NCBI RefSeq assembly: GCF_037042905.1
Contig: NC_087252.1
Location: 992,001-1,054,000 of the forward strand
Reading direction: 5' to 3'
DNA from: Lytechinus pictus
Taxonomy: Eukaryota
DNA: 62,000 nucleotides
Program-made: the position numbers and the translations under genes
Notes under the pieces: generated by a model
Told to the model about the DNA's origin: nothing
Database searches by the model: none
Seen by the model: only the letters and a program-made list of their open reading frames with translations
Shown here: positions 16,201 through 23,063 of the stretch, in pieces
Layout: every line of letters begins with the position of its first letter
Numbering within the stretch: the first letter of the stretch is position 1

Positions 16201-17790
16201 AATTTGCCTCTGCCATAAGAAATATTTCTTCACTTCAGGTACCGGCTACAGCTTGGTGGCGTTTCCTGCTCATGCATTCCCGGTTCAGTACTTCCCAGAT
16301 AAATTCGAATTAGCTTCCAGCATCATCGCGACAGCTGGAGGTCTCGGCATGATGGTGCTCCCTGTCATAGCGGAGCAATTTAATCGCATCTATGGTTGGC
16401 GGCAAGCCATGTTACTTCTTGGTGCTGTCAGCCTACACAACATCCCCATCGGCGCGTTGGTGAAGACAAAGGAAAGTACTTCCGGGGCAAGGACACCGTC
16501 ACCGAATGATGATGATGTGGTGCACCATGGAAATGAATATTGTTCTACAAGTGTCTCGGAACCACTTTTAAAGTCAACGTCAGTCGACTGTCAAGCTGAA
16601 ACATCATGTGGTGAGTCATCGAGCGGCTGTAGAAGAGATGATTATGATGGAGATAATCACTTGAATGCACTAAGTAACACCAAACCGAATACACAGTCAA
16701 AGGATACTTCAAACCATCTCCTTAAATATAATAACTCTAAGACATCGAATGTGATTTCCAATTCAAAGACAATTGTCACCGAAAAAGAGACGGGTAGTGT
16801 CAACAACAGCTTACAAGAATCACTCTGGCAATCGTTGAAAATTCTTACAGGATTTGACCTGGTGGAAAAGAAGCCAGATGTTTTGAGTAGTATATTCGCC
16901 ATACTTACGCTAGGCATGTCTTACAGTGGTTGGATTATATTTGTCGTGCCAAACGGCATCGCCAAAGGATATCCACTGGAAACGTCGATACTTCTTGCAG
17001 CAGTCGGGGGAGGATCCAATATTTTTGGACGTTTCATCATAGGGTTCGTAAGCAAATGGCAACTTTTCTCAAATCAAACGCTATTTGTTATGTTATGCGT
17101 TGTGTGTTCCGTAGCATACGCAATGAACATCTTATCAACTCATTTTTGGACCTTGTGCGTTCTGGCGGTCATAAATGGAAGCACATTAGGTGCTATGACA
17201 ACAATGCTATCATTTCTTGCCAGGGATGTAGCACCTGACGGGGACGTAGAGGGCGTGATATCTCTGTTTCTTGTTGCTCTAGGAGGAGGTCTTCCTCTCG
17301 GTGGCTATGCTGTTGGTAAGATACTCGGACCCCCTTCTCATAATTCATTTAAATGCAAATATTAATTATGTGTGTGGGTGGGTGATGAGAGCGAGCGCGT
17401 GCTTGTGTAGGTGTGGGGGTGGTAATGTTTTACATTCGTCCATTTCAAAGAAAAGGAACTCTGGTGCTCTGTTCCGATCTCATAACATAACATCTCTGCT
17501 CCTGATTACAACTACCAAATTTGATTACTGTCTGGCAAAAAAATGTATCTAAAGCAAAAAGTTTTAACAGATAATCATCATCTACCGTTATTTTTTGCTA
17601 AATCATTTTACCTCGTTTTGGTATCATGTTTTCAGGTTGGCTATTTGACAGATCCAAGTCCTATGACGTGCCTTTCATGTTTCTTGGGTCGGTCGGCCTT
17701 GTCTCAGCCTTTTTTATCATCATCCCAAGCATCCCCAATACGTGCTGTTGTGTCTACCAGTCAATCTGTAACGCCGTCTTCACGAAATGA
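981..17790 (+). CDS. Monocarboxylate transporter-like (SLC16/MCT family, MFS) gene, join(981..1176,10720..10860,16239..17315,17636..17790), ~522 aa
   Basis: Four exons with GT-AG boundaries, all introns phase 1, total 1569 nt in one open frame. MCT-like motifs: EVGVLKSYGVF, QYFPDKFELASSI, YGWRQAMLLLG, large central loop, NIFGR, GWLFDRSKSYDVPF. The exact SLC16 member cannot be assigned. Confidence 0.9.
1190..1640. repeat. (GAT)n/(GGT)n compound microsatellite
   Basis: Trinucleotide repeats seen directly at the start of intron 1. Confidence 0.95.
1700..2077. mobile_element. Fold-back MITE with internal ~20-bp AGACGAAATGG-type subrepeats
   Basis: Left arm (aattgccaactc...ctcaccacatggtctactttcattta) is the inverse of the right arm (taaatgaaggtagaccatgtggtgag...ggcaattt). 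Confidence 0.7.
3152..5591 (+). mobile_element. Non-autonomous Helentron-type element (HINE/DINE-1-like) with internal ~150-190-bp tandem repeats
   Basis: Sub-terminal IR GTCTCACCTGCAT (3155-3167) / ATGCAGGTGAGAC (5557-5569), 5' hairpin gtctcac..gtgagac, (CGG)n, tandem core repeats, T-rich insertion site. Confidence 0.75.
3345..4686 (-). mobile_element. Internally deleted CR1/L2-group LINE derivative inserted in the HINE
   Basis: (GAAT)n tail at 3345-3365; 3' stem-loop resembles that of the LINE at ~41855-41905; ORF 3644..4102 resembles the pre-endonuclease region (CNIFPFLALDDNDF..SKYY); interrupts a HINE unit at gagtttca|tgtcacatg. Confidence 0.6.
5978..6462. mobile_element. Harbinger-like MITE (…GTGTGAAAGGGC end), interrupted by a CAC-type MITE; relative at 28811-29310
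   Basis: Colinear similarity with 28850-29310, which lacks the 6178-6416 insert. Confidence 0.65.
6178..6416 (+). mobile_element. CAC-terminated (EnSpm/CMC-like) MITE, 2-bp TG TSD
   Basis: TIR cacagcaaaaactgtggtgttaa / ttaacaccacagtttttacagtg, TG on both sides; near-identical inverted copy at 6845-7081. Confidence 0.8.
6622..7114. mobile_element. CACTGCAAAAA-type MITE (TA TSD) containing a nested MITE
   Basis: TIR cactgcaaaaa / tttttgcagtg; uninterrupted relative at 45770-46002. Confidence 0.8.
6845..7081 (-). mobile_element. Second copy of the 6178-6416 MITE, nested, TG TSD
   Basis: Reverse complement of 6178-6416, flanked by TG. Confidence 0.8.
7405..7542. mobile_element. Short MITE with 19-bp TIR TAGTCTAGATCCGGACGTT
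   Basis: Perfect inverted repeat 7405-7423 / 7524-7542. Confidence 0.65.
7580..8030. repeat. Purine-rich low-complexity region with (GA)n and G runs
   Basis: Seen directly. Confidence 0.8.
8880..10270. repeat. (TCTA)n/(TC)n degenerate microsatellite field
   Basis: Seen directly. Confidence 0.8.
10720..10860 (+). CDS. MCT-like transporter exon 2
   Basis: Acceptor tctttcag, APVSRFLMKHFSTRQVFITGAII..., donor CAG|GTAACT. Confidence 0.88.
10906..11251. mobile_element. AGGGAGTT-terminated MITE-like repeat; relative at 43501-43820
   Basis: Shares the tagggagttt start and ttttcaaaggaatt.gtgcgtt.tag block with 43501-43820; degenerate IRs. Confidence 0.45.
11399..15132 (+). mobile_element. L1/Tx1-clade LINE, ORF2 only, frameshifted, in intron 2 of the MCT gene
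   Basis: APE motifs (SLNVRGL, LQET, NVYAP, GDWN, SRFDY, DH), RT motifs (KSPGLDG, WRPISLLNCDYK, DFSKAFD, RQGCPLS, YADD), CPHC zinc finger; AATAAA at 15103, polyA tail, TSD AAATGAGCACTT at 11387-11398 and 15133-15144. Confidence 0.92.
15145..16018 (-). mobile_element. Truncated, diverged copy of the Tc1/mariner-type non-autonomous element at 39080-40146
   Basis: Inverse similarity (cctcagatccagctggcacaaaaagg, cacacactgaggcc); ends gaaagtgtaac...gcactg. Confidence 0.7.
16239..17315 (+). CDS. MCT-like transporter exon 3
   Basis: Acceptor cacttcag, matches ORF 16253..17365 (TM segments plus hydrophilic loop), donor G|GTAAGA. Confidence 0.92.
17636..17790 (+). CDS. MCT-like transporter exon 4 (last TM, stop)
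   Basis: Acceptor ttttcag, GWLFDRSKSYDVPFMFLGSVGLVSAFFIII...FTK, TGA at 17788. Confidence 0.88.
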
Positions 17791-17879
17791 AATTCGGAAG
17801 GTTCCAACTGCTACAGCTTTTTCTGATACGACACTACAAAAACCATTGACTCTTTTTCCGTAAAATAATATCTACATGT

Positions 17880-17900
17880 ATACTACCCCTACTACTACTA

Positions 17901-17947
<47 letters not shown>

Positions 17948-18085
17948 ACTACTACCTCTACTACTGCTACTACTACTAATACTACCACCACCACCACCAC
18001 TACTACTACTACTACTACAACTACAACTACAACTACTACTACTACTACTTCAACTACTTCTACTACTACTAATACTCCTACTGTC
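17880..18085. repeat. (CTA)n/(CTG)n microsatellite
   Basis: Seen directly. Confidence 0.95.
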
Positions 18086-18254
18086 ACGTGGCGAGTGATT
18101 TTTTTTATTATTTACCTACTGCTGCTTGACACAAAATAAGGAATACGTAAAACTGATGAATACGGTTATCAAAATATTGAATCAAATCTCTTAAATCATT
18201 ATTTTGTTTCCTTTTGATTTGTTTTACAATAATTGTACATGAAAATATACAAAT

Positions 18255-18440
18255 TGCTTATATAGCGCTCAACATCAAAAGTCTCTAAGCGCTCTTCATA
18301 TGCAGCGGAACTACCCTGGCTTTAGCAGAGCAGCGGTTACGTGTTCAGCGTTTTTAGGAATAAATTCCTGCCAGCTAGGTTACCTCACCCATTTACCTCA
18401 CCTGGGTTGAGTGCAGCACACTGTGGATCAATTTCTTGCT
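18255..18440 (-). mobile_element. Head-less copy of the tRNA-derived SINE family
   Basis: Shared core cctcacctgggttgagtgcagcaca. Confidence 0.7.
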
Positions 18441-18589
18441 AACACAAAAACTGCATTTATACCAGCTACAGTCATTCTCACTTTTGGACATGGTAGATGT
18501 ACTATACAAGTGCTTCATGGACCCTCCAGGACATTTTATACTTTGGCCGAGTCAATGAATAAGATGTAGGCCTAGTCTAAGTAAAACTC

Positions 18590-21500
18590 GTTTGTGTGAG
18601 TGTGTGAGTGGGGAGGGTTGTGAGGGTGTGTGTGTGTGTGTGCGTGGCTCACATATATGTCATGAATTTTGTTTTCTATTATTTGTTAATTTCATGTTTA
18701 TGTTCTTTCCATGTCTCATCTGGTTTTGAATATGTTACTATCAAATCGTTTAAGCGCGTAAAATACTTTCGCTCCCGGATTTTATATTATCATAATTCCG
18801 TGGCCATCTTTCAAACAACAATATACCAGGCACATAATCAAGTCTTTTTTCGTCTTTTATTGTCTGGCGACGTTGAAACAAATCCCGGTCCGAACTATAA
18901 ATTCCCTTGTGGTCATTGCAAGAAACCCGTTAAAAATAACCAAAATGGACTGTTGTGTACCACTTGTCAAAAGTGGTATCACACTAAATGTCTTGAGATC
19001 TCTTTAAAGGAATATACTAGGCTGTATCAAAACCCAAATGAGAATTGGATATGTTTAACCTGTTCATTGCCGCCATTTTGTGACTCCATTTTTACACAAT
19101 CCTTGATTGATGTTCAACCCACCTCAACAGTTAATGCACCTCCTATCCCTGAATTTAACACACCTAGTGGAATTGATAAGGCTGTTTTATGCAAATCATT
19201 TAATGATATATTTAAAGCAAAAGGGTTGCATTTCGTTCATTTAAATATCAGATCCATTTTATATAAAATTCCTGAACTACGCGTCCTTCTCTGCGAAAGT
19301 AGAATTTCAGTAATTGCAATTACTGAAACATGGTTGAATTCGTCCATAAATGATGAAGAAATTTATATCGATGGTTATTCTATATTAAGACGAGATCGTG
19401 CAGGCGACCATGGTGGTGGGGTCTGCCTTTATATTAGAAATGATATTGCATTTAATCTAAGAGAAGATCTTACACCTGATGGTATTGAATCATTGTGGAT
19501 CGACATTCTATTACCACATACAAAGCCTATTACTTTAGGTGTAGTCTACAGACCCCCGAGAGACAATCACTTTATTGATTCTCTCCCAGATATATTGGAC
19601 ATATTAACAAAAGATGATGAGGTTATACTTTTAGGGGACATGAATATTTGTCTATTACAACAAGCGGCACTGACCAAAAGATACAAGAATATTTTGAATT
19701 TATATGGTTTGAGCCAACTTATAACAAAACCCACCCGAACTACACCTACCACTTCTTCATTAATAGACCATGTAATTTGTAGTAAAGAAGAAAATATTTG
19801 TCAAAGTGGTGTTTTTGAAATTGGCTTAAGTGATCACTATTTAACGTATTGTTCAAGGAAACTTATCAGGCCTGTATTCGGGCAGCATAGAACTATAAGC
19901 ATTCGATGTATGAAAAACTATTGTGAAAATGATTTTAATTTCGTTTTATCTCAAATCAATTGGTCTGTTATATTTGAATGTAATGAAGTAAATATTGCTT
20001 GGTCACACTTCAAAAGTATTTTCATGTCAGTAGTTGATAAGTGTGCACCTCTAAAACAAGTAAGAATTAAGCAAAGAACAGAAAGATGGATGAACAGTGA
20101 AATTATTGGTTTGATAAGACAACGAAATATAGCTTTCAGGAAAATGAAAAAGGATATTGGTAATTTAGAACTCGAAAGGAAATTTAAACTATTGAGAAAT
20201 GTGGTACAAAGGAAAGTGAGGAAAGCTAAAGACGAATTTTTCCAAAATCAAATTGAAGACAATAAACATGATTCTAGGAAATTATGGAAGAATCTCAAAG
20301 AGTTTAAAAAACAAACAAAAAAATATTCAGAAAAGTGTTATTAATATTGAAGGGGAATTATGTCATGATAATCTAAAGATAGCCAACGAATTTAACAATT
20401 ATTTCACAACAGTGGCCGATAAATTAGCTTGTGAGCTCCCCATTACGGACAGAAGTGAGTTTGGGGCCGACAGTCCTAATTAAAAAAAAACTATACGACA
20501 ATAAAGGTATACAAAGAGGCTGTTTTAATTTTTCTCCTGTCACAGAAAAGTTTGTATTAGATGAATTATCCAAGTTGAAAATATCAAAAAGTACCGGACT
20601 TGACTTGGTTCCTGCTAGATTTTTAAAGGATGGTGCAAAAAATGTCTTTATACCTTTAACTTACATTATTAACCTATCTATTCAAATTGTACATTCCCTG
20701 ATGAAATGAACATCGCTAAAGTCACACCACTACACAAAAAGAAAGACAAAACTCACGTTGGGAATTATAGACCTATTAGTGTGTTAAGCATAGTGTCGAA
20801 AATTTTGGAGAAATGCGTGTATTCTCAAATTGAGAAATACTTTAAAGAATACAAAATCATATATGAATTTCAGTCTGGTTTTAGGAATGGTTATTCTACT
20901 GAAACATGTTTAATTCACTTGTTGGATTTTGTTAGGAATGAAATTTCCGAATGCCGTTATGTTGGGATGGTTCTTCTTGACTTACAAAAAGCATTCGATA
21001 TGGTTAATCATGAAATACTCTTAAAGAAATTAGAAGTGATGGGTTTGAATTTAGCATGCTTGAATTGGTTTAGGTCTTACTTGACCAATCGCCGTCAAGT
21101 GGTATCCATGCAAAATGTACTTTCATATTCTATGCCTATAAAGTGTGGAGTTCCACAGGGGAGCATATTAGGTCCAATTCTTTTTATGTGCTATATCAAC
21201 GATATGTGTATTTGTGTTAATGAAAGTAAATTACTTTTATATGCAGACGACAGTGTTTTACTCTACTCTGATACAAGTCCTAAGCTGATCGGTTAAAAAT
21301 TTAGTTTAGAATTATCAAATTGTGTTAAATGGATGACAGATAACAAGCTTAGCTTACATGTTGGTAAGACTGAAAGTATTTTGTTTTGTTCGCGGGGTAA
21401 GTCTAAGCATACAGATGATATCAATATATACTATAACAATCAATTAATTAAGAGACAGAATTCCGTGAAGTATTTAGGCCTGATATTAAATAGTGATCTC

Positions 21501-22681
21501 TCATGTACATCTATGGTTGACTCTATTGTCAAAAAAGCTAATGCTCGTTTGAAATTTCTATACCGGTACCAAAATTGCATGAATACGAAATCCAGACGCA
21601 TTTTAAGCTTTTCATTAATACAGTGTTTATTTGATTATGCTAATGCAGCATGGTACTGCAGTCTTGGAAAGGTTGATCAAAAAAAGTTTATAATTATTCA
21701 AAATAAGATTGTTAGATTTATTACTTGCTTACACCCAAGAACACATGTTGGGAAGAATGAAATCGAAAAAGCTGGCCTTCTTCGCATAGACTTGAGGTCG
21801 CAACAACTTATACTTCACCATGTTCATAAAATTTTCTATTCAAACGAATATCATTACATATCAAACAATTTTACACGGTCATCTAATATTCACGGGCATG
21901 AAACAAGAAGTAGTCTGTTTAACTTTGTTGTACCTATGAGAAAAGGTCAAATTGGTAATACATTTTATTATAAAGGTATACATTTTTGGAATTCCCTCCC
22001 TAATCATGTTAAATCGGTTAAGACTTTTACACAATTTAAAAGAGTATTGAAACAACACTTAAAAAATGTCTCCACTCTGTAATGTTAAATATTCTTTCTA
22101 ATTTCATGTGTATCGTGTATAGTCTTATATATAACTATTTAGTTATGATTTATTTAATCAACTTGTTTCACATTGTTTCATCATATTTTGTTGTTTGCGT
22201 GAAAGTTTGATGTCAAACTTATTGTACTTTTTCATATCTTAGGTTTTAAGATTCATGAATCTTGTTTTAGTTACGATGCATTTAGCGCTACTTAAAAACT
22301 GATTATTAGTGTAATTCTCATGTGTAACTTAGAAGTAATGATCGTTTACTCAACCTGTTTTACAATTATTTTAATCATATTTTGTTGACTGCGTAAGTGT
22401 TTTTCATGGCAAACTTATTTGTTTTTGTCTTTTTATATATTAAGTTTTACAATTCATCGTGTAAATTTGGTGGTCTAGACTTAATTGATGTAGTTTGTAG
22501 ATTTCTATAGGTGTTTTTTCATAGATGTACATTGTCTTCAATTACTGATGTAAGGACCCCATTGGAAATAAGCCATCTCGGCTTTCATGGGTAATCCTGT
22601 CAAGGTATACACTTCTGTTTATAATTTCCTTGTACTTGTAACATAGTTACCTGACAAATAAAATCAATCAATCAATCAATC
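18590..22681 (+). mobile_element. Near full-length CR1/L2-group LINE encoding leader - 2A peptide - PHD - APE endonuclease - RT (3 frameshifts, 1 in-frame stop)
   Basis: ATG at 18662; LLLSGDVETNPGP at 18854-18892; C4HC3 PHD; APE (HLNIRS, ITETWL, YRPP, GDMN, SDH); RT ([28 protein letters not shown]); AATAAA followed by (AATC)n tail. The 5' boundary is uncertain. Confidence 0.9.
18851..18892 (+). other. 2A-like ribosomal skipping (StopGo) motif RLLLSGDVETNPG|P
   Basis: Exact match to the D(V/I)ExNPGP consensus, in frame with the downstream PHD-APE. Confidence 0.9.
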
Positions 22682-23063
22682 ATAACAAAATATAACTTAA
22701 CTTAACAATAATTGTCGACTCGATCCCCCATCATCTCATCTGGCCTGACATGCCCCACTCGGCCCTGGTGGTCGGTCCAGTTTCTGGCCTCTGCAGCTTG
22801 CGATGTCTCTTCCACTCGGCCTCGGCCTCCGCAGACAGTGTTGCCTCTTGATGAGTAGCCCCCAGATCAGAGAGATGTGGCTTCAACGAATTAGTGGACG
22901 AGATCGAGCCCCAATGATGACATGAATTTTGACGAATCATGTCGGTGGAGCACCGGCGCGCGGCGGCAGCTGGGGTCGTTATCTCGTCACCGACGTAGTC
23001 CCTCAGGTTTAACTTCGACTGCCTATACATACATACATCTGTGGTCTATTCTAGCTTAGGTGG

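Follow-up and report, generated by a model that had tools for sequence, protein, structure and literature searches.

Upstream of the 2A site: a conserved signal-peptide-like head and box in 2A-bearing LINEs, seen from a fossil copy in Lytechinus pictus

Sequences of the 2A (StopGo) type lie about 40-80 residues from the ORF2 N-terminus of APE-type long interspersed nuclear elements (LINEs), those of Strongylocentrotus purpuratus among them. Most 2A-bearing APE-type LINEs are without the first open reading frame (ORF1), the 2A is suggested to have permitted the change from ORF1 plus ORF2 to a single ORF, and in the S. purpuratus elements STR-24/25/34/35_SP a PHD finger stands between the 2A and the APE endonuclease (Odon 2013, PMC3708506). 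Two further systems are related. The 26-residue N-terminal 2A-like sequences of sea-urchin NLRs are signal sequences whose skipped product is cytosolic and whose unskipped product is exocytic (Roulston 2016, PMC4981915), and binding to phospholipids and liposomes has been reported for the esterase ORF1p of an L2 LINE (Schneider 2013, PMC3905857). Here we describe a LINE copy from Lytechinus pictus whose long ORF opens with a 76-residue leader ending in a 2A site. It lies in a stretch of 62,000 nucleotides (assembly GCF_037042905.1, contig NC_087252.1, forward-strand positions 992,001 to 1,054,000), called the window below and numbered from its first letter. The best explanation of our data is that in working relatives this leader is a conserved module of about 70-85 residues composed of an apolar N-terminal segment (the head), a YYxNSxATFQ box and a canonical 2A. 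The head and the box are real, conserved and widespread, and they are apparently an undescribed part of 2A LINEs.

The element is a fossil copy of a single-ORF PHD-APE-RT (reverse transcriptase) retrotransposon of the non-LTR (long terminal repeat) type, 5'-truncated, frame-broken and without ORF1 (Table 1). Its 560-residue ORF (18662..20344, + strand) begins with MNFVFYYLLISCLCSFHVSSG, carries the RILYYHNSVAIFQ block at residues 39-51 and closes its leader with LLLSGDVETNPG/P, or FFRLLLSGDVETNPG/P, the slash marking the skip between Gly76 (18887-18889) and Pro77 (18890-18892). The first-pass annotation of this DNA, drawn from the letters alone, had read the leader, the block and the 2A in the same way. 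It had also placed a PHD finger and an APE domain in the leader frame, and both were recovered there by Pfam: PF00628 at residues 83-134 (E 4.4e-8) and PF03372, Exo_endo_phos, at residues 215-392 (E 5.8e-14), with PF14529 at E 1.6e-6. The 'LINE polyprotein' it named is not whole in this copy: the frame terminates at a stop, the RVT_1 domain (PF00078, E 1e-29) lies on a separate ORF (20706..21296) in a different frame, and about 660 nucleotides of the 5' untranslated region (UTR) are missing. The RT frame is itself interrupted by stops between 20481 and 20670 and by another at 21294. In a tblastn comparison, the nearest full-length relative (P0163, 1151 residues) aligned to 18752-20335 in the leader frame and, for its remainder, to 20301-22061 in another frame. 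The locus therefore yields no enzyme, and the free PHD-EN-RT once proposed for it has to be given up for this copy. We regard this anatomy as virtually certain.

In layout, the family to which this copy belongs (family A) resembles the elements of Odon 2013: all have a single ORF and no ORF1, a 2A about 40-80 residues in, the order PHD-APE-RT and an echinoderm-type host. Family A is likened to STR-24/25/34/35_SP by the published layout. That paper treats only the 2A itself, and its text does not mention an apolar N-terminus, a YYxNSxATFQ box or the spacings found in the present elements. The sea-urchin NLR sequences likewise combine a signal-type element with StopGo at the start of a protein in the same kind of genome (Roulston 2016). 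There, however, one 26-residue sequence of a host immune gene is both signal and 2A, whereas in the LINE leader the head (residues 3-16) and the 2A (ending at residue 77) are separate, about 60 residues apart, with the box between them and a transposon as carrier. The CR1/L2 esterase/PHD ORF1 proteins have a PHD finger in common with family A, and in both cases a connection of retrotransposition with membranes is proposed; they have a separate ORF1 and a folded lipid-binding esterase where family A has no ORF1, a PHD finger fused to ORF2 and, as its membrane link if there is one, a short apolar leader (Schneider 2013). Thus a 2A near the N-terminus, a PHD finger between 2A and APE, the replacement of the ORF1/ORF2 layout by a 2A and the idea of a dual fate are already known, because they appear in Odon 2013 and Roulston 2016. 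No description of a signal-like head or of a fixed-distance box on 2A LINEs was found in the literature searched, which included the texts of Odon 2013, Luke 2013, Roulston 2016, Cell Rep 2025, PNAS 2026 and a 2026 preprint, with subscription journals, figures and closed bioRxiv supplements excepted.

The 2A of the window copy, DVETNPGP at residues 70-77, fits the pattern D(V/I)ExNPG/P and is directly preceded by RLLLSG. When D(V/I)ExNPGP was back-translated and searched in the 812-Mb genome, 143 sites were found against 1 for the reversed control, so the word is no chance match. It is retained in 8 of the 9 other aligned family copies (once with V changed to I) and lost in copy L010. Its last 13 residues, LLLSGDVETNPGP, are those of the 2As of Drosophila C virus (DCV) and acute bee paralysis virus (ABPV), for which activities of 0.38 and 0.94 were reported (Cell Rep 2025 supplement). 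The Cell Rep 2025 tables hold no activity value for the exact 2A sequence of the window. The viral 2As also share the class of the upstream hexapeptide, named 'LLLLSG-like' in a structure paper (PNAS 2026) in which the ribosome is described as pausing at 2A; they differ from the LINE in the residues farther upstream, in lying between polyprotein domains and in having no signal-like leader. The earlier description of this 2A as canonical is therefore borne out. On the strength of this identity and analogy with tested 2As, we infer that StopGo is probably active in intact relatives.

Elsewhere in the genome, a cluster of at least 11 canonical 2A sites occupies about 23.85-25.94 Mb of contig C4 (L082-L084, L096, L097), and a similar site lies on contig C8 (L090). 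In three of the sampled loci (L090, L096, L097) the sequence looks like a short first exon with the pattern M...VLLL(M/R)SGDVExNPG/P, after which come about three codons and a stop; L082-L084 have a like short downstream stretch without an in-frame ATG. The first exons of the C4 cluster are likely examples of the sea-urchin NLR type, in which signal and 2A coincide at the N-terminus (Roulston 2016).

Concerning the head, the best 11-residue Kyte-Doolittle window of the family A leader scores 2.25 and starts at residue 3. Its apolar run is 14 residues long, with a best 19-residue window of 1.49, under the membrane threshold of 1.6. FVFYYLLISCLCSF corresponds to the apolar h-region of about 7-15 residues near the N-terminus that is expected of a cleavable signal for the endoplasmic reticulum (ER), and VSSG/F, with Ser at -3 and Gly at -1, would fit the -3/-1 rule by eye. 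AlphaFold2, run on a 41-sequence alignment, predicted with confidence only a helix at residues 2-15 (pLDDT 90 for the first ten residues). Past residue 20 pLDDT was 56-63 in blocks of ten, the leader mean being 65.8, and no further fold was predicted.

To see how general the head is in this genome, a leader was scored as positive when its best 11-residue Kyte-Doolittle window within the first 40 residues reached at least 1.98. The set was drawn from 20 further PHD-type relatives with long open frames and from 26 2A sites (24 that each represent a different 2A DNA word, and two more from the C4 cluster), taken from 100 of the 143 sites. Duplicates or truncated copies (L054, L055, L057, L059, L060, L062, L067, L089), sequences with no 2A (L069-L071) or no in-frame ATG (L072, L077, L082-L084, L093), leaders of 13-24 residues (L090-L092, L094, L096, L097) and leaders of 38 and 48 residues (L088, L075) were left out. 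The remaining 23 leaders measured 69-137 residues, and only two pairs were more than 40% identical over the first 35 residues. The head was present in 21 of the 23, against 1 of 123 40-residue segments taken after the 2A, none of 20 leader middles and 14 of 115 translations in the other five frames. In all 21 it was the most apolar window outside the 2A (in L066 the peak lay two residues later). Several of these genomic relatives (L073, L074, L076, L079, L087, L095 and their kin) represent LINE families without a PHD finger that have the same leader of head, box and 2A. In them a tract of about 90-115 residues, with a basic patch resembling KRKTHRG(S/K)(K/R)GG, separates the leader from the APE; these families may be the ones described as the STR-51/61/142/197_SP type (Odon 2013).

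The same pattern was recovered from public proteins. Queries with residues 1-200 gave no match among 125 candidates of near length, homologues being found among longer proteins, and the 77-residue leader reached best scores of 0.77 and 0.76 in the Protein Atlas, against bacterial-type clusters and below a useful level. A profile of 11 short leaders, run against 1.84 billion representatives, matched 772 proteins at E up to 0.001. Among the best 150 of these, 113 have a single NPGP 55-140 residues from the N-terminal Met, and 95 of the 113 were positive for the head, the window beginning at a median of residue 6, compared with 9 of 283 control segments taken after the 2A. These 95 leaders have a median length of 80 residues (interquartile range, IQR, 74-87), a median apolar run of 12 (IQR 10-14) and a median of 62 (IQR 57-66) between the end of that run and the terminal Gly. 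In size, a run of about 12 residues matches the h-region of a signal peptide and not a membrane span. Ahead of the apolar window, the net charge was 0 in 50 leaders, positive in 32 and negative in 13. As an independent set we took 111 homologues of at least 981 residues picked by PHD/APE similarity and not by leader; within their first 230 residues, 54 of them show a 2A-like motif in strict or relaxed form. Of these 54, 46 have a leader no shorter than 60 residues, and the head was found in 32 of the 46, as against 7 of the 57 without the motif (Fisher p = 2.6e-9).

Ten clusters looked up by name included Amphiura filiformis and Strongylocentrotus, the Strongylocentrotus record XP_011667388.1 bearing the leader, and the full head-box-2A leader is so far known from records of echinoids and ophiuroids and from a single eel record. 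In the latter (P0262, Gymnothorax javanicus, a fish record) the head is apolar, the box reads YYSNATSTFQ and a 2A-like site is present, and a coral record (P0221, Paramuricea clavata) has a 2A-like site without box or apolar N-terminus. Many full-length relatives carry precomputed Pfam assignments PF27108 and PF28493, and P0200, P0206 and P0211 carry PF13472, which we take to be the GDSL/SGNH lipase family; this would mean an esterase fused into the LINE protein. Among fish, Odon 2013 had found no 2A LINEs.

Copies of the family allowed us to ask where the repeat begins and how the leader evolves. A search of the assembly with 18560-19100 returned 21 matches, 8 of which are 94-98% identical over no fewer than 528 of the 541 bases. 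The other copies begin to align at about 18254-18261, so that ATG 18662 falls within the repeat. Five of them (L002, L004, L007, L008, L010) extend about 660 nucleotides farther 5', and the window copy is therefore 5'-truncated, the full 5' UTR being about 1.06 kb. First-look candidates numbered 579 for the 3' kilobase against 19 for the 5' part, a 3'-heavy profile that is the usual LINE pattern of 5' truncation. A protein search of the genome with residues 1-143, in which 150 of 484 candidates were scored, revealed a sister family (B) with 64% identity over all 143 residues and with some copies open for about 1155 residues. A shared ORF1 was not found in the 5' regions of either family (about 1 kb in A, about 640 nucleotides in B); the 5' regions of family B have no ORF of at least 50 residues in common, which counts against an ORF1. 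We therefore regard both as single-ORF elements, in agreement with the earlier proposal of a 2A that replaces the ORF1/ORF2 layout, an arrangement already in print. One candidate ORF1, an ORF of 48-104 residues (MHIITLTSLL...) in the 5' UTR of five family A copies, was rejected because it breaks at differing points. Rfam gave no match for 18200-18700 at E up to 1.

Nei-Gojobori counts between 5 family A and 10 family B copies (the pairs being non-independent) gave proportions of nonsynonymous (pN) and synonymous (pS) differences of 0.25 and 0.65 for the whole leader (residues 1-77). By region, these were 0.385 and 0.50 for residues 1-21, 0.045 and 0.87 for the box (residues 31-51), 0.098 and 0.60 for the 2A (residues 63-77), and 0.177 and 0.96 for the PHD finger, residues 22-30 appearing neutral. 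At residues 3-13 all 7 substitutions between the families exchange one apolar residue for another. This pattern indicates that the leader is selected as protein, its box more strongly than the PHD finger; that the leader is under such selection we hold to be highly probable. The conservation and dN/dS check proposed with the first-pass annotation thus came out as purifying selection, and the RxxYYxNSxAxFQ block it had singled out is the most conserved part of the leader.

The general form of the box is KY..I.YYxNSx(A/S)(T/S)F(Q/N). In an alignment of 11 leaders N45 is invariant and Y35, Y42, Y43 and F50 are nearly so, while the leader middle outside the box is unconserved. YYxNSx(A/S)(T/S)F(Q/N) was found in 117 of the best 150 of the 772 profile matches, with the box Asn at -21 from the terminal Gly in 84 of the 117 and at -19 to -22 in 113. 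In families A and B an 11-residue insert shifts the box from -21 to -32, yet it is the most conserved part there too. The near-fixed distance seen in the profile matches suggests that the box acts within the nascent chain, before release from the ribosome. Since the F2A residues resolved in the exit tunnel are only the last 13 (PNAS 2026), the box would lie farther down the tunnel. As a conjecture, it is possibly a context that protects the 2A when the upstream protein is translocated. N-glycosylation of the box Asn was considered and rejected as evidence: the Asn is followed by x-S/T in 65 of the 117, not in family A (NSV), and the box is Ser/Thr-rich anyway.

From these features we propose the following mechanism for working relatives. 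The ribosome would release the leader at Gly76 and resume at Pro77, so that PHD-APE-RT would be made as a separate protein. At the 2A pause the head would be about 60 residues from the peptidyl-transferase centre, hence outside the exit tunnel and free to engage the signal recognition particle (SRP) or the translocon. The complex of element mRNA and ribosome would in this way be brought to the ER, the leader entering the membrane or the lumen while the enzyme would remain cytosolic, and unskipped chains would be ER-targeted, as with the NLRs. Secretion, ER entry and the 'regulatory sink' that the first-pass annotation had suggested for read-through products are what we infer from the sea-urchin NLR 2A-signal sequences, by analogy. 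We give the explanation as a whole a probability of roughly 0.5. This value reflects the step that is least secure, the targeting of the translating element to the ER, for which we would offer slightly less than even odds. A wider version would extend to a large group of animal LINEs with a 'target-then-release' leader, in which a true signal peptide exposed during the 2A pause takes the mRNA-ribosome complex to the ER, StopGo frees the enzyme and the box shields StopGo from the pull of translocation; this we consider rather doubtful.

Several observations weigh against ER targeting. The earlier reading of the hydrophobic N-terminus stands in so far as the head is a selected feature, but its n-region is uncharged: only Met-Asn precedes the h-region, where a positive charge would be expected, and a strongly basic flank follows the apolar segment in family A. 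Charge in the n-region is usual, not obligatory, in eukaryotic signal peptides. By the positive-inside rule such a charge pattern would favour an N-out anchor over a cleavable signal. The signal-like character was judged from Kyte-Doolittle windows and a putative c-region assigned by eye. The head is absent from 2 of the 23 in-genome leaders (L052, L080), from 18 of the 113 library leaders and from 14 of the 46 of the independent set, and the library count is partly circular because the profile included the weakly conserved N-terminal columns. For residues 1-21 dN/dS is no lower than about 0.67, and in the comparison of A with B synonymous sites approach saturation. A released 76-residue chain may leave the ribosome before targeting, and it is not obvious what an enzyme that acts in the nucleus would gain at the ER. 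The window copy itself is dead, with a depth of 0-1.7 in the leader bins of three RNA-seq runs. Finally, translocation of the upstream protein can inhibit 2A (de Felipe 2010).

Three other accounts of the leader compete with ER targeting. It could be a trans-acting micro-ORF1p whose basic, Tyr-rich middle KSFKRVKYFRSRILYY binds RNA and whose head is an N-out anchor or an oligomerisation helix, no signal being cleaved. The uncharged n-region with its basic C-flank would suit this, as would the lack of an ORF1 in families A and B, the conservation of the box, highest in the leader even where it is shifted by 11 residues, and the 68 of 95 library leaders that reach the 19-residue membrane threshold of 1.6; a separate product that supplies the functions encoded ahead of the 2A has been proposed (Odon 2013), and the lipid binding of L2 ORF1p (Schneider 2013) offers a parallel. 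However, the apolar run is short for a membrane span, family A staying below that threshold, the middle outside the box is unconserved and has no predicted fold, and the preferred position of the box Asn at -21 fits a role inside the ribosome better than that of a free peptide. We find this account unlikely, and we judge likewise improbable that the head has no targeting role and instead tunes translation or StopGo (for instance through a chaperone or a pulling force on the nascent chain), marks the product for degradation or is a tolerated product of T-rich 5' sequence. The leader-coding DNA is indeed T-rich in its first 120 nucleotides (T 0.345), an apolar window also arises in 10 of 46 alternative sense frames, and residues 1-21 evolve fast; the Ryan laboratory argues that 2A chiefly down-regulates the downstream product, and a 2026 preprint ties Leu-rich 2A-like peptides to lower protein abundance. 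Against base composition stands the contrast of 21 of 23 leaders with 14 of 115 other frames of the same DNA, and a head without targeting role would not account well for its place at the very N-terminus and its absence from leader middles, its narrow size and spacing or its association with 2A.

It might also be that the true start lies elsewhere, the 'leader' being untranslated or part of a longer protein. The full 5' UTR of about 1 kb, the seven upstream ATGs of its retained part and the in-frame upstream extension of one relative (L054) would allow for this. On the other side, an in-frame stop (18605-18607) stands 18 codons upstream of ATG 18662, the leader has no second Met, family B starts at the same position, coding-type conservation begins with the leader start, and the start context (gtcATGa) has the purine at -3 seen in 17 of the 20 family start codons examined. 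We regard another start as very improbable.

Table 1. Features of the LINE copy and their positions in the window.
Feature	Position	Strand	Basis
LINE copy, family A, 5'-truncated, frame-broken	18254..22682	+	alignment of copies; match of the 3' kb ends at 22682
retained part of 5' UTR, with seven upstream ATGs and a GT microsatellite (~18596-18650)	18261..18661	+	copy alignment, list of upstream ATGs
two-codon upstream ORF (ATG TCA TGA), stop overlapping the main ATG	18657..18665	+	identical in 8/9 other aligned copies
start codon of the long ORF	18662..18664	+	context gtcATGa
apolar segment FVFYYLLISCLCSF, residues 3-16, of h-region size	18668..18709	+	Kyte-Doolittle, AlphaFold2, A/B substitutions
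polar stretch HVSSG, residues 17-21, compatible with a signal-peptidase c-region	18710..18724	+	by eye
conserved box KRVKYFRSRILYYHNSVAIFQ, residues 31-51	18752..18814	+	pN/pS of A vs B, leader alignment
variable 11-residue spacer, residues 52-62, in families A and B only	18815..18847	+	pN 0.43; alignment gap
2A/StopGo FRLLLSGDVETNPG/P, residues 63-77, skip site Gly76/Pro77	18848..18892	+	motif, pN/pS
PHD finger, residues 83-134	18908..19063	+	PF00628
APE-type endonuclease, residues 215-394	19304..19843	+	PF03372, PF14529
frame-loss zone, no frame open throughout, stop 20342-20344	20301..20706	+	frame switch in P0163 tblastn
reverse transcriptase domain, out of frame with the leader	20736..21272	+	PF00078 on ORF 20706..21296
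C-terminal region of the LINE protein	21333..22082	+	ORF; alignment reaches residue 1141 of P0163
(AATC)n microsatellite tail, 3' end of the element	22664..22682	+	alignment of the 3' kb

Some further features of the locus deserve mention. The only aligned copy that deviates at the two-codon upstream ORF is the 5'-truncated L009, and this ORF may represent a termination-reinitiation arrangement downstream of a long 5' UTR rich in upstream ATGs. The three RNA-seq runs (rRNA-depleted, same species label, reads of 97% likeness) gave depths of 0-7 per bin over the element and 0 in its flanks, with no reads from 17600 up to the LINE, and neither start nor strand could be read from them; reads were skipped as repeat at 17876-18139. 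Deep coverage (300-400) in these runs was confined to 18330-18440, by reads that fit in part only. These some 110 nucleotides of the LINE 5' UTR (peak 18387-18440) are 79-86% identical to a genomic unit of about 100 nucleotides, for which there are 1749 first-look candidates in the genome. The flanks of the reads include the word GGGATTCGA, which resembles a tRNA T-arm or B box, and the unit may be a SINE-like (short interspersed nuclear element) repeat that has a piece in common with the LINE 5' UTR. Just upstream of the LINE and on the same strand, an open frame of the MFS type (PF07690, E 2.2e-15) at 16349-17365 is probably an exon of a host transporter, and an 87-residue 'ORF' at 17876-18139 that consists almost entirely of Thr/Ala runs is a simple-sequence repeat and no gene.

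The loss of ORF1 from some LINEs, together with the appearance of a 2A close to the N-terminus, has called for an explanation since 2006-2013, and earlier proposals went only as far as down-regulation of ORF2p or an unknown 'function upstream of 2A'. The present comparison indicates that the upstream peptide is no mere spacer but a selected module with a signal-peptide-like head and a box at a near-fixed distance. In 2A constructs, where secretion of the upstream protein is a recognised difficulty (de Felipe 2010), the box may find use as a naturally occurring 'long 2A' context. If ER targeting is true, it would link LINE translation to membranes, so far hinted at only by the lipid-binding esterase ORF1p, and it would suggest an origin for the signal-2A sequences of sea-urchin NLRs. 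Were the target-then-release reading to hold, these elements would be the first known transposons to use the secretory targeting machinery for their own translation, and their leaders the natural forerunners of those NLR sequences.

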